This document shows, piece by piece, positions 33,187 through 61,909 of a DNA stretch of 64,000 nt. Each line of letters begins with the position of its first letter. Within the stretch, counting starts at the first letter, position 1. Source of the DNA: Candidatus Saccharimonadales bacterium (lineage in GTDB: Bacteria > Patescibacteriota > Saccharimonadia > UBA4664 > SCTI01); contig DATIII010000002.1 of assembly GCA_035479795.1 (NCBI GenBank), positions 84,034 to 148,033 on the forward strand, in the 5' to 3' direction. The notes below the pieces were generated by a model that saw only the letters and a program-made list of their open reading frames with translations, ran no database searches and was not told the origin of the DNA. Position numbers and translations under genes: made by a program.

Positions 33187-33400
33187 GTTTACTCCTAAAA
33201 AATAATCCACCTATTGCAGGGGCTCCGCTATCAGCGGAACGGTGCCACCCTGCTTCAAGTGGACTTCATTTGCCTCGTCTTACGCGGAGGTTACGGCCAG
33301 TTCTAATTTCCGCCGAGGCGGGTTTCTTCCGGCGACCTGCCTACTAGCAGATAGGCTTGCGGGTGATAACCGCTCGAGGTCATTGATATTGTTAATTTAA
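33187..33400 (-). promoter_or_regulatory. Putative T-box leader (tRNA-Ile sensing) upstream of ileS
   Basis: The minus-strand leader contains GCAGGGTGGCACCG, which matches the T-box core AGGGUGGNACCGCG. Two AUCA candidate specifier sequences lie upstream. Several helices and a U-run precede the ileS RBS. Confidence 0.4.
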
Positions 33401-33403
33401 ATT

Positions 33404-33667
33404 CTAACCTGGTACAACCCTGTGCGCAAGCATGGCTAGAAGCTGTAATAGCAAAAAAGCTGCCAGCGGCGTGAAATCAAAAATCCCAGTATTGGGTAAT
33501 AATCGCCGAATTGGCGCCATTATTGGCTCCGTCAGTTCCATAATTAACACCCCAAAGCCACCAGTCGGCATCGGATTCACCCAACTCATCAATACCCGGA
33601 TCAGGATCAAAAGGTTAAATACGAGGACGAAGAGGTCGATGAAGTTGACAACTATCTGGGCCAGCAT
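33404..33667 (-). CDS. yggT: YggT/Ycf19 family membrane protein
   Basis: 87 aa, two transmembrane helices, YggT pattern. Its position upstream of ileS matches the ylmG-ileS synteny. Confidence 0.8.
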   Translation of the reverse strand: MLAQIVVNFIDLFVLVFNLLILIRVLMSWVNPMPTGGFGVLIMELTEPIMAPIRRLLPNTGIFDFTPLAAFLLLQLLAMLAHRVVPG

Positions 33668-33922
33668 CTATGAGTTAGCCAAATAAGAGATGTCAGCAAC
33701 TAGTGGTAGTTGGTCCCATTTGGCCGCAACTTGGCCATCCTGACGCGCCAACACCACGGCCGGGCGGGCCAGAACATCATATAGTTCGGCTAACCGGATG
33801 CCTTCATTCGAATCAGCATCGAGCAGTTTGACATCTACCTTGGCCTTTTCGAGTTCACTTTTAAACCTAGCTATGTCCCGTTCCTCGGGTCCACCGGCGG
33901 TATAAAAAACGTAGGCAGTCAT
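33668..33922 (-). CDS. Hypothetical 84-aa protein
   Basis: An ORF between the nrdJ terminator and yggT. I do not recognise a motif. Confidence 0.45.
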   Translation of the reverse strand: MTAYVFYTAGGPEERDIARFKSELEKAKVDVKLLDADSNEGIRLAELYDVLARPAVVLARQDGQVAAKWDQLPLVADISYLANS

Positions 33923-33928
33923 AAATAC

Positions 33929-33956
33929 AGGATACAGGATTCAGAATTGAGGATCC
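33929..33956 (-). repeat. Array of four tandem heptamers (plus strand AGGATAC AGGATTC AGAATTG AGGATCC; reverse complement NNATYCT)
   Basis: Read directly. Inverted relative to the arrays at 3723-3750 and 15595-15622. Confidence 0.6.
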
Positions 33957-33966
33957 AGAACGTAAG

Positions 33967-34000
33967 AAGGGCTGGGTACGCTTTCGCGCACCCAGCCCTT
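33967..34000 (-). terminator. Terminator hairpin downstream of nrdJ (11-bp perfect stem)
   Basis: AAGGGCTGGGT ...12 nt... ACCCAGCCCTT, read directly. Confidence 0.65.
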
Positions 34001-34011
34001 GGTTTGCGGTA

Positions 34012-36858
34012 TTAGCCGCAGCCGGTGTTGTTACCACAGCTGTTGCAGGTGTAGCACGAGCCCGTCCGCTGCATCATGCCGCCGCACTGGCTGCAGGCCG
34101 GACCCAGCTCCAGGCCGGGCAGGCTGTGGTTGCCATTGCTGGGGGCGGCCGTGATGGACGAACCCATCTCGGCGGTCTCGTTGGCCTTGACCTCGGACGG
34201 CACCTCGGAGGGCGCCACCTCGGTCACCTTCATCTCGCCGGCCGCACCATCGACGAGGGTGGTCTCGGCCAGCTCGGGGATCTGAATACCCAGAGCCTCC
34301 ATGTGCTCGGGCTCGTGCCGCATGTAACGCGACGCCAGCCAGCGCATGATGTAGTCAGGCATGGACTTGGCGAACGGGATCTCCGGGTTGCGGGTAATCC
34401 CCTCTGGCTCGAACTTCATGTGCGAGAACTTGTACACCAGCGTCTCGAGCGGCACCCCGTACTGGAGCGCGATCGAAATCGCCGTGGCAAAGGAGTTCAT
34501 CATCCCCCGCAAGGTCGATCCCTCCTTGCCAATGTCGGTGAGGAAGATCTCCCCAACGGTGCCGTCCTCGTACAAGCCGGCGGTGATGTACCACTCGAAC
34601 CCGGCCACCTCGGCCTTGTGCGTCAGCGACTGCCGCTCCTTGGGCATGCGGTTGCGACGCGGGCCGGCCTCAGCGATGGCCTTGGCCACGATGGCCTCGA
34701 CATCGCTGGGGGTGTAGGCGGCCTTGGCCGCCTGCTTCTTGCCCCCGACGGTGACGTAGGCCTGGGCGGCCTTGGAGCCGTCGACGTAGAGTGCCAGGGC
34801 CTTGACCCCGTGCTTCCACGCCTGGATGTAGGCGTCCATCACGTCCTCGGCGGTGGCCTTCGCAGGGAGGTTGACCGTCTTGGAAATGGCGCCAGAGATG
34901 AAGGGCTGAACCGACCCCATCATCTTGATGTGCCCCATGTGGCTGATCGCCCGCGCCCCAACCGCAACGTCGAACACCGGGAGATGGTCGTCGGACAGGT
35001 GCGGCGCATCGGACAGGTCACCCTTGGCATCGAGGTGCTCGAGGATCTCGTCGATGTGATTCGACTTGTACCCCAAGCTCTCCAGAGCCGGCCGAACCGA
35101 CTGATTGACCATCTTGATCCGGCCGCCGCCCACTAGGTCCTTGAGCTTCACCAAGGAGAAGTCGGGCTCGACGCCGGTGGTGTCGCAATCCATCAGGAAC
35201 GAGATCGTCCCCGTCGGCGCTAGCACCGTGGCCTGGGCGTTGCGGTAGCCATTGATCTCGCCCTCGGCGACCGCTGCTTCCCAGTCCTCCTGGGCTGCAG
35301 CCAGCAGCATGGAGTCCGAGCAGTGCTCGATCTCGCGGCTGGCGTCGCGATGCATGCGCATCACGTTGTTGTGTGGCTCGCGGTTCTCCTCGTAGCGGTC
35401 GTAGGGGCCGACAGCCTCAGCGAACCGCGCCGAGTTGAGGTAGGCCCGTCCGGTCATCAGCGCCGTGATAGCGGCAGCCAGCCCGCGACCCTCGTCGGAG
35501 TCATAGGGCAGGCCGCTCTGCATCAGGTAGGCGCCAAGATCGGCGTAGCCGAGACCAAGCTGCCGGAAAGCCCGTGCGTTGTCCCCGATCTTCTCGGTGG
35601 GATAGCTGGACGGGCCAACGATGATCTCCTGCGCCAGGTAGACGATGTCGACGACGTGGCGCATGGTTGCGACGTCGAACGTGCCATCCGGAAGCCGAAA
35701 CTTGGTCAGACGCAGCGAGGCCAGGTTGCAAGCCGAATCGTCGACATGCATGTACTCGCTGCACGGGTTCGAGGCGTTGATGCGCCCCGAGTTCGGGCAG
35801 GTGTGCCACTGGTTGATGATGGTGTCGAACTGAATGCCGGGGTCAGCGCAGCGCCAGGCTGCGTCGGCCACCGCCACCATCAGCTCGCGAGCCGTCATCG
35901 GCTGACCCGTCTCCGGATCGACCACGTCATGCTGTGAGCCGTCGATCCGCCACCGGACTTGCCAGGGCGCCGTCTCCCCACCCTCCACCAGCGACATGAA
36001 GTCGTCGGTGACGCGGATGGAGTTGTTGGCATTCTGGAAGGGCACCCGCCAGCGATCCTTGCCGTCGACGGACACGTCGTAGCCGAGCGCGTCCAGCTCC
36101 TTGGCAAAGTCCTCAGCATCCGCCTTGCAGCGGGCAAAATGGAGGATGTCCGGATGGTCGACCTCTAGGACAACCATCTTGGCGGCCCGGCGGGTCTTGC
36201 CACCGGACTTGATGACCCCGGCCCAGGCGTCAGCGCCGAGCATGAAGGACACTGGGCCCGAAGCGGTGCCGCCCTTACTGAGCGGCTCCATCGACCCACG
36301 GATCTTCGACAGGTTGATGCCGGAACCCGACCCACCTCGGAAGATCTTCCCCTCCTGGGTGTTCCAGAAGAGGATGTCGTCCATCTCGTCCTCTGTTGAG
36401 AGGATGAAGCAAGCCGAGCACTGCGGCTGCTCCTCGAATCCGACGTTGAACCAGACAGGGCTGTTGAAGGCCGCATACTGGTGGAGCAGGATGTGGGTCA
36501 ACTCGTCGCGAAAGGCGTTGCCGTCTTCCTCGGTCGCGAAGTAACCCAGCTCCTGACCCCAAGCGGCGATCGTGCCGGCAACGCGGCCGATCATCTGCTT
36601 GACGCTGTTCTCGCGCGCCGGCTTATCCAGCTGGCCGCGGAAGTACTTCTGCGACACAATGTTGGTCGCGGTCAAGCTCCAGGTCTTGGGGAACTCGACA
36701 TTCTTCTGCTTGAAGCTGGGGTTGTCAGGATCGCCGATCAGCGCCGTCCGCTTCTCCCACTCGACAGAGTCGAAGGGGTCGGCACCAGGCGTCGTGAAAA
36801 CGCGGCGGACCACCAGACCAGAGTCCTGATCCAGGCGCTGCTGCATGGTTCCAGCCAT
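34012..36858 (-). CDS. nrdJ: Class II (adenosylcobalamin-dependent) ribonucleotide reductase
   Basis: 948 aa with a class II RNR core and a C-terminal Cys-rich tail (CSQCGG...CYTCNSCG). Clearly GC-richer than its neighbours, with long antisense ORFs. Confidence 0.92.
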   Translation of the reverse strand: MAGTMQQRLDQDSGLVVRRVFTTPGADPFDSVEWEKRTALIGDPDNPSFKQKNVEFPKTWSLTATNIVSQKYFRGQLDKPARENSVKQMIGRVAGTIAAWGQELGYFATEEDGNAFRDELTHILLHQYAAFNSPVWFNVGFEEQPQCSACFILSTEDEMDDILFWNTQEGKIFRGGSGSGINLSKIRGSMEPLSKGGTASGPVSFMLGADAWAGVIKSGGKTRRAAKMVVLEVDHPDILHFARCKADAEDFAKELDALGYDVSVDGKDRWRVPFQNANNSIRVTDDFMSLVEGGETAPWQVRWRIDGSQHDVVDPETGQPMTARELMVAVADAAWRCADPGIQFDTIINQWHTCPNSGRINASNPCSEYMHVDDSACNLASLRLTKFRLPDGTFDVATMRHVVDIVYLAQEIIVGPSSYPTEKIGDNARAFRQLGLGYADLGAYLMQSGLPYDSDEGRGLAAAITALMTGRAYLNSARFAEAVGPYDRYEENREPHNNVMRMHRDASREIEHCSDSMLLAAAQEDWEAAVAEGEINGYRNAQATVLAPTGTISFLMDCDTTGVEPDFSLVKLKDLVGGGRIKMVNQSVRPALESLGYKSNHIDEILEHLDAKGDLSDAPHLSDDHLPVFDVAVGARAISHMGHIKMMGSVQPFISGAISKTVNLPAKATAEDVMDAYIQAWKHGVKALALYVDGSKAAQAYVTVGGKKQAAKAAYTPSDVEAIVAKAIAEAGPRRNRMPKERQSLTHKAEVAGFEWYITAGLYEDGTVGEIFLTDIGKEGSTLRGMMNSFATAISIALQYGVPLETLVYKFSHMKFEPEGITRNPEIPFAKSMPDYIMRWLASRYMRHEPEHMEALGIQIPELAETTLVDGAAGEMKVTEVAPSEVPSEVKANETAEMGSSITAAPSNGNHSLPGLELGPACSQCGGMMQRTGSCYTCNSCGNNTGCG

Positions 36859-37070: not shown

Positions 37071-37553
37071 TTAAACCTGCCCGAGACTGCGGGATTTTAG
37101 CTTGGCTACCTCCGCTTCAAAGCTTTCAATGTCGGCAAATGAGCGATACACACTGGCAAACCGTACGTAAGCCACATCGTCCAAGCCCATCAACTTGGTC
37201 ATTACAATCTCGCCGACTTTGGCCGCTGGAATCTCCGCCTCGCCGATGGCCCGGACCTCTCGCTCGATTTCATCAATGACTTCCTCGATCCGGCCAATCG
37301 AAATCGGGCGCTTTTCAGTAGCCCGGTACAGGCCACCCGCCACCTTTTGACGATTAAACGGCTCACGGCGGCCGTCCTTTTTAACTATGGCCACACTCGG
37401 CCGTTCCAGCCGCTCATAGGTTGTAAAGCGCAGACCACACTTAAGACACTGCCGACGCCGGCGAATTGATGCCCCCTCTTCTAAGTCACGTGACTCGATG
37501 ACCTTAGAGTCTAAATATTCACACTCGTGACACTTCACGTGCTTCCCCCACAT
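37071..37553 (-). CDS. nrdR: Transcriptional repressor NrdR (Zn-ribbon + ATP-cone)
   Basis: VKCHECEYLDSKVIESR Zn ribbon and SIRRRRQC. The start could be the ATG at 37553 or a GTG 15 nt downstream. Confidence 0.9.
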   Translation of the reverse strand: MWGKHVKCHECEYLDSKVIESRDLEEGASIRRRRQCLKCGLRFTTYERLERPSVAIVKKDGRREPFNRQKVAGGLYRATEKRPISIGRIEEVIDEIEREVRAIGEAEIPAAKVGEIVMTKLMGLDDVAYVRFASVYRSFADIESFEAEVAKLKSRSLGQV

Positions 37554-57919: not shown

Positions 57920-59671
57920 ATGCAAAACGTCTTCAAGGTCCTGGGTTACGTCAAACACATTTGGCGACAGATCGCCTTGGTCGCAGCCATCAGTATTTTC
58001 ACCACTGCCCTGTCAGCTATCCAGCCATATGGCTACAAGTTGATCGTCGACGAGCTGGTTAAAACCGCCAGCAATCATCGAACCGATTCAAAGTTAATTT
58101 GGCTGGCCATCGGTGCCCTGCTAGTGCTCCGGGTGGTTTCTTCGATTGCCAATTATTTTTCCAGCCTACTTGGCAACCGCGTCTATTCTCAAGTATTCAT
58201 TAGCCTCCGCGATAGTGTTTTTCGGCGATTAACTACCCTTTCGCTCGATTATTTTGAAAAGAATCGGACTGGCGAGATCATGCAGCGCGCTAGTGGCAAT
58301 GTGGCCGAATTGGCGAACTGGGTTTACTCCACCGCCGACGGCTTTTTAAGCATGAATCTAACCATTATATTTGCCTTGGTTCTAATATTCGTTGTCGATT
58401 GGCGGGCCGGCATTGTCATGAGCATTGCCGTGGCCTTATTTATGGCCCAGCAGGTCCCCACCTTGCGACAAACCCGGCCGATGGGTAAAAAAAGCCGGGA
58501 AGAAATGGAGCGGGCCGGCGGTTATTTGCAGGAAACCATCACCCATATTCATACCGTGCGTAGCTTTGGCGGCGAACCGGGCGCCATTGCCAACCACCTT
58601 GAGGCCATTAAATCCTGGCGCCAGCTGCAATACGATCGGTTGGTTATATTACAGCGCAGCATTCTCTTCCGGCAGCTGACAAATAGTGTGGCCATCATCA
58701 TTACCTTTGGCATTATTACCCTAGGCGCCCTGAATGGCACTCACACGGCTGGCGACATTCTGCTGGTCTCACTCTACCTCCAGCAGATCACCCAAAACAT
58801 CTGGTCACTCGGCCGGTTTATCGTCCAGACCAATGAAATCGACATTACCGCCGAGCGGATCGTGGGCATGCTGGAGATCAAACCGACAGTCGTGGATGGC
58901 CCGGACGCGCGGGAATTGACCGAACTAAAAACGATTATGTTCAAGGACGTTAGCTTCCACTACCCAGGCAAGCGGCGTAAGGTACTGCAAAATATTAATT
59001 TCCAGATTGATCCCGGGCAGAGTCTGGCTCTGGTCGGGCCCAGCGGTACCGGCAAGACCACCATTACCAAGCTGCTGCTGCGATTCTATGAGCCGACGGA
59101 CGGTGAAATTTTAATCAACGATGAACCGATTAGAAACTTCACCCAGGATTCAATTCGCGAAAAGATGGGTGTGGTTATGCAGGACGTAGCCCTCTTTAAT
59201 GACACCGTGGAAGCCAATCTTAAATTAGCCCAGCCCGAGGCCACTCACGCCGACGTCATCCGGGCTGCCGAGCAGGCCCACGCCAATGTGTTTATCGAAA
59301 AGCTGCCAGAAAAATACAAAGCCCTCGTTGGTGAACGAGGGGTTAAGCTTTCCGGCGGTGAAAAACAACGGGTGGCGATTGCCCGGGCCATTTTAAAGAA
59401 TCCTCAACTGATTATTCTCGATGAGGCTACTAGCGCCTTGGATAGCGAGTCTGAGCATCACGTTCAAGCCGGCTTAAGCGAGTTAATGGAGGGTCGCTCT
59501 TCCGTCATCATCGCTCATCGACTCTCCACAGTTATGAAAGCCGATCAAATATTAGTGCTAAAAGATAATAAAATAGTCGAACGCGGTACTCACACCGATC
59601 TCGCCGACAAATCTGGCGGGCTGTATGCCAAGCTATTTAAGCTCCAGACCGAAGGGTTTGTTAAAGCTTAG
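57920..59671 (+). CDS. ABC transporter, fused permease/ATPase (type I exporter, MsbA-like)
   Basis: Six-helix transmembrane domain, then GPSGTGKTT, LSGGEKQRVAIARA and ILDEATSALD motifs. Confidence 0.88.
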   Translation: MQNVFKVLGYVKHIWRQIALVAAISIFTTALSAIQPYGYKLIVDELVKTASNHRTDSKLIWLAIGALLVLRVVSSIANYFSSLLGNRVYSQVFISLRDSVFRRLTTLSLDYFEKNRTGEIMQRASGNVAELANWVYSTADGFLSMNLTIIFALVLIFVVDWRAGIVMSIAVALFMAQQVPTLRQTRPMGKKSREEMERAGGYLQETITHIHTVRSFGGEPGAIANHLEAIKSWRQLQYDRLVILQRSILFRQLTNSVAIIITFGIITLGALNGTHTAGDILLVSLYLQQITQNIWSLGRFIVQTNEIDITAERIVGMLEIKPTVVDGPDARELTELKTIMFKDVSFHYPGKRRKVLQNINFQIDPGQSLALVGPSGTGKTTITKLLLRFYEPTDGEILINDEPIRNFTQDSIREKMGVVMQDVALFNDTVEANLKLAQPEATHADVIRAAEQAHANVFIEKLPEKYKALVGERGVKLSGGEKQRVAIARAILKNPQLIILDEATSALDSESEHHVQAGLSELMEGRSSVIIAHRLSTVMKADQILVLKDNKIVERGTHTDLADKSGGLYAKLFKLQTEGFVKA

Positions 59672-59702
59672 TCGCGTACTCAAAGAAACTTAAATTGGGA
59701 TA

Positions 59703-59735
59703 CTGCCCCAGGAACCTCCTTGGTTCCTGGGGCAG
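59703..59735. terminator. 14-bp perfect-stem hairpin between convergent ABC exporter and module-3 operon
   Basis: CTGCCCCAGGAACC tcctt GGTTCCTGGGGCAG, read directly. No U-run on the plus strand and a weak one on the minus strand. Confidence 0.6.
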
Positions 59736-59759
59736 CTGGATACAACTCCCGTTGGGTGG

Positions 59760-60380
59760 CTAGCCGCCGAGCTTCTGCAGCTTGGCCAGGAAGCCCGACT
59801 TGGGCTTCGGGGCCGGGTCGCCTGCCGGCCGGGACCGGATGGGTTCCGGCTCGGGCTCGACTGCCCTCCGGGGCCGAGCCGCAGGGGGCGGCTCCGTCGT
59901 CCGGATGTCGTCGAGGATCAGGCGCTGCCGCGGGCCGCGAAGGCGGTCTGCGATTTCAGCATCCTCCCGAGCGCGACGACTGCGTTCTGCCTCAAGCGAG
60001 GCGTGCTGGTCCTCCAACCTAATGAGCTCAGCTTCGAGCTCATTGAAGGTCCGTGTCGCAGCGATAGCCGCATTCTCGGCGGCCGCCACCTCTTCCCGCT
60101 TTGAGAGAATCCTCTCGCGCAGGCTTGGAGCCGGAGCGGGATCAGCCGCCGGGGCGGCCGGCGTGACGAACGCGAAATCCGCTCCGGGGAAAGCCGGAGC
60201 TGCAGCCACGGGAGCCGGCCCAGGTGTCGGTGCGGCAGCCGGAGCGGGCTCCGGCTGGGCGGCCACAGGGGCCGCAGCGGGTGCCGAAGCCCCCGAGTCG
60301 TTGTCGGGCACAGGGATGGAAACGGCAGCGTCTGCTGTCGCCTCGGCCTCGGCCACGATCGCTTCGATGTCGCTCGACAT
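59760..60380 (-). CDS. Hypothetical Ala/Pro-rich protein with central coiled coil (module 3, second gene)
   Basis: AGGAGGG RBS 4 nt upstream of the ATG. 206 aa. Low-complexity AP-rich N-terminal half, then a REEVAAAENA...LEAELIRLEDQHASLEAE coiled coil. Confidence 0.5.
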   Translation of the reverse strand: MSSDIEAIVAEAEATADAAVSIPVPDNDSGASAPAAAPVAAQPEPAPAAAPTPGPAPVAAAPAFPGADFAFVTPAAPAADPAPAPSLRERILSKREEVAAAENAAIAATRTFNELEAELIRLEDQHASLEAERSRRAREDAEIADRLRGPRQRLILDDIRTTEPPPAARPRRAVEPEPEPIRSRPAGDPAPKPKSGFLAKLQKLGG

Positions 60381-60388
60381 CAGCCCTC

Positions 60389-61318
60389 CTAGTCGTTGAC
60401 CAGCAGGCCGAGTTCAGCCCGCTTCTCGTTTTTCAGGATCTCCGCCCTGGCCTTGATTTCCCTGGCCTTGGCGGGGTACTTCGCGATCTGGCCGGCAATG
60501 GCCAGATCGAACTCCTTGACCCACTCCACGAACGCCTCCTTGCGGGCGACGTGCTTGGGATGGGTCTCGAGGTGCTGAGCCACGAGCCGCACCAGAAGGT
60601 ACGGCACATCCGCGATGCCCGACACCAGGTTCTCCCAGATGTCGGAACGAGAGTCGAAGAACGCATCTTCGCTCTCAAACCGCGGATCGCCGCAGATGAT
60701 GCACCTCGACGAGGCGCTCGCGGCAAACGACAACTGGCCCATGAGCCGGATGCGTGCGTTGAGGCAATCCCGGCAAAAACGCGGGAAAGGCGACGTGCGC
60801 ACATCCTTGCGCTGACCGCGCCTGCGAACATCCCGAGGATTGGCGATCACGTTGTGATCGCACACCCCGAGGTATTCGTAGTAGCCCTGCTGGCTCTCCT
60901 GGGCCATCGAGACCTTGGGATCGGGCGGGTTCCAGGTCGGCAGCGCCGCCTGATCCGTCTCCACCTGCTGATCGATGTCCATGAGAAGCGTCAGGTCCTG
61001 GCGAACGATCGCCTCCAGCTCGGGGTCGATCTCGGTCGAGCCGTTGACCTTCCCCTGCCGGCGAAGTGCCGGATAGGCAGTGGCGAAGTACACGGGCTTG
61101 ATGCCCCTGAGCCCTTGCGCCACGAAGCCACCCAGCAGCTTGTCGATTGTGACCTTCCGAGAAGCCTCGGACTCCAGCTTCGCGAACTCTTCGGGAGAGA
61201 TCTTGGAGCCCTCCTTCAAGCCCGAGCGCTCGAGAATGTCAGCCATCTGCTCGATGGTCAGCCCCACATCAGGGGCCACCTTGCGAGCCAGACGGTTTCC
61301 GGTTGCCGTGGTCGGCAT
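60389..61318 (-). CDS. Hypothetical 310-aa protein with Cys cluster (CDHN...CRDC...CIIC; putative zinc ribbon) (module 3, first gene)
   Basis: Start at MPTTATGN, with GGAGG 6 nt upstream. The Cys spacing was read directly. I do not recognise a family. Confidence 0.5.
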   Translation of the reverse strand: MPTTATGNRLARKVAPDVGLTIEQMADILERSGLKEGSKISPEEFAKLESEASRKVTIDKLLGGFVAQGLRGIKPVYFATAYPALRRQGKVNGSTEIDPELEAIVRQDLTLLMDIDQQVETDQAALPTWNPPDPKVSMAQESQQGYYEYLGVCDHNVIANPRDVRRRGQRKDVRTSPFPRFCRDCLNARIRLMGQLSFAASASSRCIICGDPRFESEDAFFDSRSDIWENLVSGIADVPYLLVRLVAQHLETHPKHVARKEAFVEWVKEFDLAIAGQIAKYPAKAREIKARAEILKNEKRAELGLLVND

Positions 61319-61540
61319 TGAACCTCCAGGTTGGAGAGAGATTCGCCAGTCGTAGGTCGGCGACACCTTCTAGGGATCGCCTTCCGGCGACGGGTTACTA
61401 CTCGTCTCTTAGAGGAGACGACCGGTTACAGCATGTTTCGGGTGTGTATCCAAGGCCTTTTAAGGGCCTTTGGGTACGAAACTTTATCTAGATTTCAAAC
61501 TCCAACAGATGAGAAATGGGTTCCTCAAGTGCAATGGAGT

Positions 61541-61569
61541 ATATTAGCATAATTACTTTAAAAAGTCAA
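61541..61569 (-). promoter_or_regulatory. Sigma70-like promoter (TTGACT-17nt-TAATAT) 10 nt downstream of rbfA stop, oriented toward module 3
   Basis: Read on the minus strand. It would give a ~215-nt structured leader before the ATG at 61318. Confidence 0.4.
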
Positions 61570-61579
61570 TGGATAGCGC

Positions 61580-61909
61580 TTACGGTTTGCCATCCGAAGA
61601 ATCACCTTTAATCAGCCGGCTAATATGGCTGGCGTGCTCACCGCCCAGATCATGCTGGAATGTAAGCTTAGGCGTAAACTTGGTTTCCAGCCCGCCAGCC
61701 ACCGCCGCCTGTATCTCGCCACGATAGTCTTCAATAGCCTTAAACAGTGACTCGTCACCCACAATTCCAATCCATACCGTCGCCTGGCGTATATCAGGTG
61801 TGACATCAACCCGCGTCACGGTATAGCGGCCAGATTCGGGCAGCCGGGCCATCTCACCGGCCACAATCTGTTTCACTAAACTTGAGACTTTGCGAATGCG
61901 CTCGCTCAC
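61580..61909 (-). CDS. rbfA: Ribosome-binding factor A
   Basis: 109 aa with a KH-like fold, downstream of infB. Confidence 0.88.
   Translation of the reverse strand: MSERIRKVSSLVKQIVAGEMARLPESGRYTVTRVDVTPDIRQATVWIGIVGDESLFKAIEDYRGEIQAAVAGGLETKFTPKLTFQHDLGGEHASHISRLIKGDSSDGKP

Follow-up and report, generated by a model that had tools for sequence, protein, structure and literature searches.

A GC-rich two-gene operon of Saccharimonadales is probably native and resembles the rRNA operons of its lineage in the layout of its leader and trailer

Here we describe a GC-rich segment within a 64,000-nucleotide (nt) stretch of DNA from a Candidatus Saccharimonadales bacterium (GenBank assembly GCA_035479795.1, contig DATIII010000002.1, positions 84,034 to 148,033), which we refer to as the window and to which all coordinates belong unless another locus is named. 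The segment lies between the genes of an ABC exporter and rbfA and carries on its minus strand two genes, here called X and Y. We favor the reading, at a probability of about 0.6, that it is a native, lineage-restricted operon of Saccharimonadales whose expression cassette follows the plan of the ribosomal RNA (rRNA) operons of the same lineage. The case for such an rRNA-like cassette is strong for the gene family as a whole and moderate for the copy in the window. The segment is probably not recent foreign cargo, as had been proposed in an initial annotation based on its position and on a composition considered typical of actinobacterial proteins.

60389..61318, minus strand: gene X, 309 amino acids, with a predicted HeH-like N-terminal region, a long helix and two putative zinc sites.
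59760..60380, minus strand: gene Y, 206 amino acids, its start coupled to the X stop codon.

The two genes form an operon and encode genuine minus-strand proteins. As the initial annotation had noted, the segment is open on both strands: between about 59600 and 61400 the GC content is 62-70% (0.62-0.70), compared to about 50-55% on either side, and long open reading frames (ORFs) of 309/325 and 206 amino acids on the minus strand face frames of 365 and 205 amino acids on the plus strand. The ribosome-binding site (RBS) 5' of X reads cctGGAGGttcaATG, and the junction between the X stop and the Y start reads gacTAGGAGGGCTGATG, of the form TAG-GAGGGCTG-ATG; the GGAGG and AGGAGGG RBSs and the stop/start coupling described earlier can thus be read in the sequence. 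GC content at codon positions 1, 2 and 3 is 0.64/0.42/0.83 in X and 0.82/0.47/0.64 in the plus-strand frame of 365 amino acids. Based on this pattern we assign the coding frames to the minus strand, the plus-strand frames being the mirror image expected of shadow ORFs. That the real gene is instead the 365-amino acid plus-strand ORF, or that the segment is a non-coding GC-rich RNA, is a reading to which the long frames on both strands lend some appearance, but we consider its probability negligible: apart from the mirrored composition, the plus-strand ORF has no Pfam match, and 17 homologues, conservation of Cys/His columns and a confident alignment-derived structure model all speak for the minus-strand product. 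Identical contig junctions in three separately assembled sequencing runs indicate that the GC-rich island is not an assembly chimera.

The composition of both genes is atypical for the window. GC content at third codon positions (GC3) averages 0.579±0.038 in 46 other window genes, with a maximum of 0.668, and the only outliers are X (0.826), Y (0.739) and nrdJ at 34012-36858 (0.867); X and Y exceed the mean of the 46 genes by 6.5 and 4.2 standard deviations, respectively. Their codon usage is of a general high-GC type (AAG 94-100%, CAG 93-100%, ATC 80-89%), and TTA, ATA and AGA are absent.

An exhaustive phmmer search of 1.84 billion representative proteins identified 17 homologues of X, at 26-45% identity. 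Genomic context was readable for 11 of these, and 11 of 11 contexts were Saccharimonadales-like, two of them named as such by NCBI; among these representatives and readable contexts, no X homologue occurred outside contexts of Saccharimonadales type. A tblastn search of X against phage records gave no match. Scans of X and Y with Pfam, PHROGs, PADLOC and NCBIfam returned nothing significant, a Pfam scan over all 18 family members gave only sub-threshold noise, and word-seeded protein searches found self matches only. On this sequence evidence, X and Y are members of a small family, which was seen in Saccharimonadales-like genomes only.

The family occurs in two chromosomal contexts. The order infB-rbfA-[leader]-X-Y is shared by the window and loci L004 and L005, and in L006 one additional ORF of 216 amino acids (L006:8963-9613; no Pfam match) lies between rbfA and the cassette promoter. 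The genes 3' of the cassette differ among all four of these genomes. The initial annotation had stated that its reading would be refuted by orthologues of native composition in the same place, and this is in part the case: orthologues follow rbfA in L004-L006, with native or lower composition in L005 and L006 only. In the second context the order is secA...X-Y-Z-W-prfB-ftsEX, which is full in L013, L014 and L016, truncated in L007 and L008, and anchored by the leader in L121, L125, L134, L135, L072 and L103. These last six loci were recovered with the leader as the probe and have the same neighborhood with GC-rich genes 3' of the leader; the gapped DNA pattern used to scan the genome contigs was too loose, with about 114 of 120 matches attributable to chance (one inside pheT of an oral TM7), and the six are the real leaders. 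In at least three loci (L072, L125 and L134) the first gene behind the homologous leader is missed by the X profile.

L072:5875-6783; L125:6580-7473, minus strand; L134:5911-6795: first genes behind a homologous leader, about 300 amino acids, GC3 0.69-0.80.

The leader is therefore more conserved than the protein encoded behind it. The first genes of L125 and L072 were considered as clear X homologues and dropped, given an hhalign probability of only 1-2%. A CxxC motif was seen at the equivalent position in the two such translations inspected in full. Every homologous locus has a positional counterpart of Y, and BLAST detected no similarity among the Y proteins.

High GC3 recurs across the family. 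In the window, L004, L007, L008, L013, L014, L016, L121, L125 and L134, GC3 of X, Y and Z is 0.69-0.89, compared to 0.49-0.65 in flanking housekeeping genes; operon values in L011 and L012 are similar, on contigs that have no flanking genes for comparison. In L005 and L006, operon GC3 (0.54-0.63) is below that of the flanks (0.65-0.76). High GC3 is a trait of the gene family that recurs in most members whatever the GC content of the host, and not a mark of recent import. Candidate causes are a gene pool shared through exchange among Saccharimonadales, repair with a GC bias where the locus recombines, or selection at the RNA level linked to transcription of the rrn type.

Upstream of X, the 260-nt interval between rbfA and X had passed without comment in the initial annotation, apart from a TTGACT-17-TAATAT promoter 10 nt after the rbfA stop, which is indeed found there. 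By homology and predicted folding, this interval is a conserved structured leader, and the 3' strand of a pairing between leader and trailer, likewise overlooked, follows the hairpin at the end of the operon.

61541..61569, minus strand: sigma-70-type promoter TTGACT-N17-TAATAT with TG (extended -10), 10 nt past the rbfA stop codon.
61319..61534, minus strand: structured 5' leader of about 215 nt, from the minimum free energy (MFE) fold; homologous to the leaders of L004-L006.
61320..61344, minus strand: RBS hairpin in which CUCUCUCC pairs with the GGAGG Shine-Dalgarno sequence of X; present in the MFE and centroid structures.

Transcription would be expected to start near 61534. The window leader has an MFE of -70.3 kcal/mol (z = -3.05), and 0 of 200 shuffled sequences fold as well. 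The hairpin over the X RBS may add translational control. Leaders of the X family are 200-470 nt long. The sequence TTGAC[AT]-N17-TAnnnT is present at the same relative place in 11 of 11 full-length homologous leaders, most of them with the TG of an extended -10, and the leaders of both chromosomal contexts share blocks that start directly after the -10 (AT[CT][AG]CC). Judged from these motifs and predicted folds, a long structured leader behind a consensus promoter is common to every copy of the family. None of these leaders is matched by an Rfam family, and Rfam searches of the module, the leaders of relatives and the whole window returned nothing relevant.

The leaders of the secA context contain in addition a hairpin of about 75 nt in three tiers, with 27 predicted pairs and the invariant apex UGCCGCCCAG. 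Compensatory double changes are present in 19 of the 27 pairs among 14 sequences (L007, L008, L010-L014, L016, L072, L103, L121, L125, L134 and L135; for example, L013:9754-9829). This hairpin has no match in Rfam, is absent from the clade of the window, and is a candidate for a new cis-regulatory RNA motif.

61484..61500, minus strand: boxA-like element GTTTGAAATCTAGATAA, the sole exact match in the window to the pattern TTTGAAANCTNGATAA.

The most conserved block of the leaders reads CCTTGA[ACT]A[GA]YYGRATAGTCAAAG, in the window GTTTGAAATCTAGATAA; its likeness to boxA was tested with position weight matrices (PWMs). The comparison set comprised 120 contigs with a TM7-specific 16S signature (L138-L257). 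The 16S leaders of TM7 share a block CNTT[AG]A[AC]AAYT...TAGTGCAAATCA, which in some begins with CTTTAACAATTTA, a sequence identical to the boxA region of E. coli rrn. With a PWM constructed from 13 operon leaders only, the boxA block was the best site in 59 of 68 anchored TM7 16S leaders, and the score surpassed that of the best shuffle in 35 of 84 TM7 16S leaders. In the reverse test, a PWM from rrn leaders ranked the block of the operon leaders first on both strands in 10 of 16 loci and among the top three in 4 more. A 12-nt PWM of the boxA core of TM7 16S leaders had its best site in the window leader directly 5' of the 5' arm of the outer pairing described below, as in 6 of 7 leaders. Searches with nhmmer, using either a long leader profile or short block profiles, found no link between operon leaders and rRNA leaders. 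At the level of the block, the operon leaders resemble the boxA block of TM7 16S rRNA leaders, and this likeness points to native control signals.

61450..61485, minus strand: 5' strand of the outer pairing, core 61459-61478, CGTACCCAAAGGCCCTTAAA; overlaps a local hairpin at 61452-61470.
59668..59702, minus strand: 3' strand of the outer pairing, core 59675-59694; ends 4 nt from the convergent stop codon of the ABC exporter.
59703-59716/59722-59735, minus strand: GC-rich perfect 14-bp hairpin with a 5-nt loop and no U-tract, 25 nt past the Y stop.
61436..61468, minus strand: 5' strand of a possible inner pairing, core TGGATACA, 61445-61452; about -24 kcal/mol with 59724-59753.

Directly after the last GC-rich gene, nhmmer detected the leader block a second time, in inverted orientation. 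The 14-bp perfect hairpin without a U-tail, known from the initial annotation and located at 59703-59735, has comparable U-less GC hairpins behind the final GC-rich gene in four relatives (L004, L005, L006 and L014) and, in less clear form, in L013 and L016; in the same loci and with the same gradation, the 3' end has the order stop codon, GC hairpin, 3' arm. We assessed this bracket by local alignment of each leader with the reverse complement of its own 3' flank and by duplex predictions in short windows, because RNAduplex on full-length leader and flank allowed huge loops and was uninformative. Cognate scores were 20 for the window, 40 for L004, 30 for L005, 32 for L006, 41 for L013, 43 for L014 and 40 for L016, compared to about 15±2 for shuffled sequences (maxima 22-27) and 12-21 for non-cognate pairs between clades. 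The arms therefore differ between loci but match within a locus. One example of co-variation is AGCTGAAT/ATTCAGCT in L013 and L016, which is AATCGGAT/ATCCGATT in L014. For the window, the outer duplex of 61450-61485 with 59668-59702 has a predicted free energy of -21.6 kcal/mol, compared to -7.3±2.6 kcal/mol and a minimum of -19.3 kcal/mol in 1000 shuffles. Chance could account for the 8-nt core of the possible inner pairing; in L005 and L006, the sequences as read by eye contain an analogous inner pair with one compensatory change.

As a control, we examined the rRNA operons of TM7. In 47 of 47 TM7 loci with enough flanking sequence, a complement of the boxA block is found no more than 200 nt past the 3' end of 16S, and scores in the best 40 of the 47 loci were 35-57, compared to about 17±2 for shuffles. 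The 5' strand of the 16S leader-trailer helix is, in rRNA operons of this type, formed by the boxA block (…TTAAAAATTGAATAGTGCAAATCAACGTCAG) itself.

Several other complementary stretches were observed at or near the module. At 59706-59735, the RBS-like sequence AAGGAGGU is found within the loop and 3' arm of the terminal GC hairpin, and a scan in 30-nt windows indicated that the region of the X RBS (61322-61351) could pair with an arm of this hairpin at about -26 kcal/mol. Outside the module, at distances of about 40 and 110 nt, a 20-nt inverted repeat of 85% complementarity (59613-59632 / 61679-61698) lies within the coding 3' ends of the ABC exporter gene and rbfA; with about 0.1 chance pairs estimated per 2.5-kb region, it may be a coincidence.

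In the mechanism that we favor, RNA polymerase would start near 61534, and Nus factors would load on the boxA-like site, which would render elongation resistant to Rho through the 215-nt untranslated leader and the atypically coded genes. Once transcribed, the 3' arm would pair with the leader arm. The resulting leader-trailer helix might be cut by RNase III, as in pre-rRNA, or might merely close the transcript, in either case yielding an mRNA with hairpin-protected ends, and the hairpin over the RBS of X would add a layer of translational control. A bolder version, which we put forward tentatively and at well below even odds, is that this family of protein operons is transcribed and matured by the rRNA pathway, with antitermination by Nus factors from a boxA and a helix of leader and trailer that forms during transcription around the entire mRNA, that the cassette perhaps originated from an rRNA operon in which the rRNA gene was replaced, and that high GC3 was selected at the RNA level, for Rho resistance or for the stability of a transcript that outruns its ribosomes. 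Production of X, Y and, where present, Z would then be tied directly to the control of ribosome synthesis.

A number of observations weigh against the native rRNA-like cassette. The boxA-like site of the window copy gives a weak signal by itself (4.4 bits, P = 0.22 with the 12-nt core PWM), and it is outside the four best window sites on both strands with a 20-nt rrn PWM. By simple alignment, the arms of the window copy score only 20, compared to a shuffle maximum of 24. Of 20 arm mismatches, a manual count found no more than 9 to be G·U-compatible on the transcribed strand, so that RNA pairing is not separable from an inverted repeat acting at the DNA level. The leaders are homologous to each other, and their positional agreement is therefore not independent evidence. 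GC3 and codon usage of X and Y match those of nrdJ, a clearly foreign-type gene in the same window. L005 and L006 are 76% identical in RbfA but only 36% in X, and this discordance of the X phylogeny with that of the host keeps lateral exchange among the explanations to be considered. The functions proposed for the proteins build on weak similarities (IF2_N at E = 0.04 and 0.009; a likeness to the MinD helix), and transcription start, passage through the hairpin, loading of Nus factors and RNA processing are each predicted from the DNA.

The alternative to which we assign the most weight, possible although clearly less probable than the native cassette, is that the cassette has been exchanged laterally among Saccharimonadales, by recombination in conserved flanks or as a whole unit from promoter to trailer, so that its composition reflects a shared gene pool. 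Such exchange is compatible with an rRNA-like regulatory layout. It would account for operon GC3 (0.60-0.89) not following host GC3 (0.49-0.77), with values above the host in most loci and below it in L005 and L006, for two unrelated chromosomal sites with homology between them that reaches through the promoter, for the variable downstream neighbors in the four rbfA-context genomes, and for a divergence of X that is discordant with host markers not only in L005 and L006 but also in L007 and L008, which are 70% identical in SecA and 29% in X. However, fast divergence of a lineage-specific protein could alone produce this discordance, the position is stable within each clade, no high-GC donor was identified among Saccharimonadales, and the module showed no mobility gene, tRNA gene or direct repeat resembling att. 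The discordance between X and host reflects either very fast protein evolution or cassette exchange among Saccharimonadales lineages. An origin outside the lineage, with the module recently acquired from a high-GC donor (for example, an actinobacterium that hosts the episymbiont, or a phage of this host), seems improbable to us. It has in its favor the Ala/Pro-rich composition of Y and the high-GC type of GC3 and codon usage, nearly the same as in the nrdJ island. Yet the lack of any detected homologue outside the lineage speaks against a recent actinobacterial import: all readable contexts of the 17 homologues are Saccharimonadales-like, and neither phage records nor the four family libraries returned a match. 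Orthologues occupy the same site after rbfA in relatives that are 72-75% identical in IF2, and the leader resembles TM7 rRNA leaders. A single old import since adjusted to host composition fits no better, given that identity among X proteins has fallen to 29-46%, with IF2 at 71-75%, and high GC3 is retained nonetheless. Of the features that commonly mark a genomic island, the segment shows atypical composition; donor homologues outside the lineage and an empty site in relatives were not found, and around the module we saw no integrase or transposase gene and no convincing flanking direct repeats.

Less probable still is that the inverted repeats act on DNA, as the ends of a non-autonomous mobile element or as recombination sites in a cassette whose inversion would turn the operon off with respect to an outside promoter that stays in place. 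The coding block is indeed flanked in every locus by inverted repeats of 20-33 nt with the promoter outside, the module is present at two different sites, and the G·U-compatible share of arm mismatches counted above, under half, would be in keeping with this idea. But homology between the two contexts runs upstream past the 5' repeat through the promoter, and the repeat is therefore not the boundary of the unit. About 20 independent loci show one orientation only, no recombinase or transposase gene was seen in or beside the cassette, and the module proteins have no Pfam match. Moreover, the same layout of boxA plus complement brackets TM7 16S, where it represents a known RNA leader-trailer helix (PMC10250234).

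Protein X contains the CDHN, CRDC and CIIC motifs listed in the initial annotation, at C153-D-H155-N, C184-R-D-C187 and C206-I-I-C209; of the zinc-ribbon appearance ascribed to them, the Cys motifs stand and zinc binding is plausible. The putative zinc sites are C153/H155/C184/C187 and C206/C209/H249/H256. In the alignment, C206, S223, R224, N230 and H249 are invariant, and the conserved blocks are Y-x-G-(I/V)-C-G-H, R-L-C-x-x-C, C-x-x-C-x-x-P-x-F, S-R-x-D-I-W-E-N-L and H-x3-H-x2-H. In one family member (P0015), all four ligands of the first site are replaced together. An alignment-derived AlphaFold2 model of X (predicted local distance difference test [pLDDT] 87.6; predicted template modeling score [pTM] 0.77) consists of paired short helices at the N terminus, a 30-residue helix, a beta-hairpin with C153/H155, a helix starting from C184/C187, a second knuckle formed by C206/C209 with H249/H253/H256, and a long C-terminal helical hairpin. 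In this predicted model, C153 and H155 are positioned in the turn between strands 147-150 and 156-159, and C184 and C187 open helix 183-194. Foldseek searches with X, as proposed earlier, gave no match in the PDB (best E = 2.3) or BFVD (best E = 0.95), and the Cys/His-rich C-terminal two-thirds have no detectable relative in Pfam, PDB or BFVD.

The sole recurring weak signal for X is to the N-terminal domain of IF2. HeH-type small helical domains include IF2_N, Rho_N, SAP and LEM. The N terminus of X gives weak matches to the IF2 domain, all below family thresholds: the X family profile matched IF2 chains of the PDB at E = 0.04-0.12, and Pfam IF2_N (PF04760) had no match in the window X and reached E = 0.0086 in 1 of 18 family members, below the gathering threshold. 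Family members P0017-P0019, of 460-560 amino acids, carry additional N-terminal HeH-like repeats, and P0013 and P0014 carry an extra N-terminal Cys-x(n)-Cys-x2-His motif with a weak match to Pfam DUF5763 (E = 0.02). Speculatively, X may be a cytoplasmic protein with two zinc sites and an HeH-like N terminus, possibly one that binds nucleic acids.

A single-sequence AlphaFold2 model of Y predicts an N-terminal helix (residues 3-19), a disordered Ala/Pro-rich linker (20-86) and a helix at 87-147 (pLDDT 88-99), in line with its earlier description as Ala/Pro-rich with a central helix. The motif of the N-terminal helix is the only part recognizably conserved among Y proteins, and through it Y might bind X. 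At its C terminus, Y has a short predicted amphipathic helix, GFLAKLQKLGG (198-204), which resembles the membrane-targeting C terminus of E. coli MinD, KKGFLKRLFGG. Terminal amphipathic helices serve as membrane tethers in MinD, FtsA and Noc; Y shares a predicted helix of this kind with these proteins, but has no ATPase or DNA-binding domain. We speculate that the long helix of Y and the amphipathic helix at its C terminus may anchor X at the membrane, and that relatives may add the membrane protein Z to the X-Y pair. The proposal of the initial annotation, a nucleic acid-binding protein together with a scaffold, remains a reasonable reading.

The second GC-rich island of the window, nrdJ (34012-36858, minus strand; GC3 0.867), encodes a 948-amino acid B12-dependent ribonucleotide reductase (NCBIfam NF005122, 1280 bits), and the adjoining nrdR (37071-37553) has native composition. 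The region upstream of nrdJ contains AACGTTGAAAAACA, boxA-like by eye. A leader/trailer bracket around nrdJ was considered and rejected, with a complementarity score of 16 compared to 18±2 for shuffles. Between ileS and the nrdJ stop, about 800 nt (33211-34011) contain no ORF of at least 100 amino acids; the ileS-proximal part looks structured and is possibly a T-box-like leader, below Rfam thresholds. In the whole 64-kb window, ARAGORN predicted no tRNA gene, and no Rfam family reached the gathering threshold.

If our reading is correct, the operon would be a natural mRNA that employs the boxA and leader-trailer-helix machinery, which is regarded as specific to rRNA, with boxA alone known at few other targets, and this would widen the known role of the Nus/rrnTAC system. 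It would also yield, from a phylum in which engineering is difficult, a cassette for high expression that is compact and portable, and would link a fast-evolving, uncharacterized complex specific to Saccharimonadales to growth-rate control in episymbionts with reduced genomes. For scans based on composition, our results are a caution that a GC-rich island can be a stable trait of a lineage-specific family and not a recent import.

Processive antitermination by leaders of long operons is also exemplified by EAR RNA, RfaH/ops and LoaP. By description, and not by sequence, the cassette is similar to these systems in having a cis element in a long leader that would let RNA polymerase cross a long or atypically composed operon; they differ from it in using other RNA elements and protein factors, and in having no leader-trailer pairing. 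The available text of PMC5725501 describes boxA sites 5' of protein-coding genes, namely suhB, rpsJ, prsA and genes of ParE-like toxins, and that of PMC7665894 describes antitermination in CRISPR arrays. According to these texts, such targets share with the cassette a NusB/E-type site in the 5' untranslated region that modulates Rho-dependent termination; the examples are mostly proteobacterial, the suhB site promotes termination instead of preventing it, and a trailer complement that brackets the transcript is not mentioned in the text available from either source. In rRNA operons, a leader-trailer helix with boxA and boxC has been described, together with an rrnTAC model of its formation (PMC10250234). 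The cassette differs from such an operon in its payload, a translated operon of two or three genes, and in an extra 100-300 nt of structured leader with a sequestered RBS before the first start codon; no equivalent of boxB or boxC is defined in it, and Nus binding and RNase III cleavage are proposed by analogy. We therefore consider the window locus rrn-leader-like and not an rRNA operon, given that its payload is two protein genes and that no rRNA or other Rfam family was found in the window. The similarities to the rRNA operon leader (PMC10250234) comprise a strong promoter, a boxA-type block followed directly by the 5' strand of a helix, a 3' strand after the payload, interruption of the helix by local hairpins, and arms that co-vary while the boxA-proximal part is conserved. 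The rRNA operons of TM7 have exactly the layout of the cassette, in related sequence.

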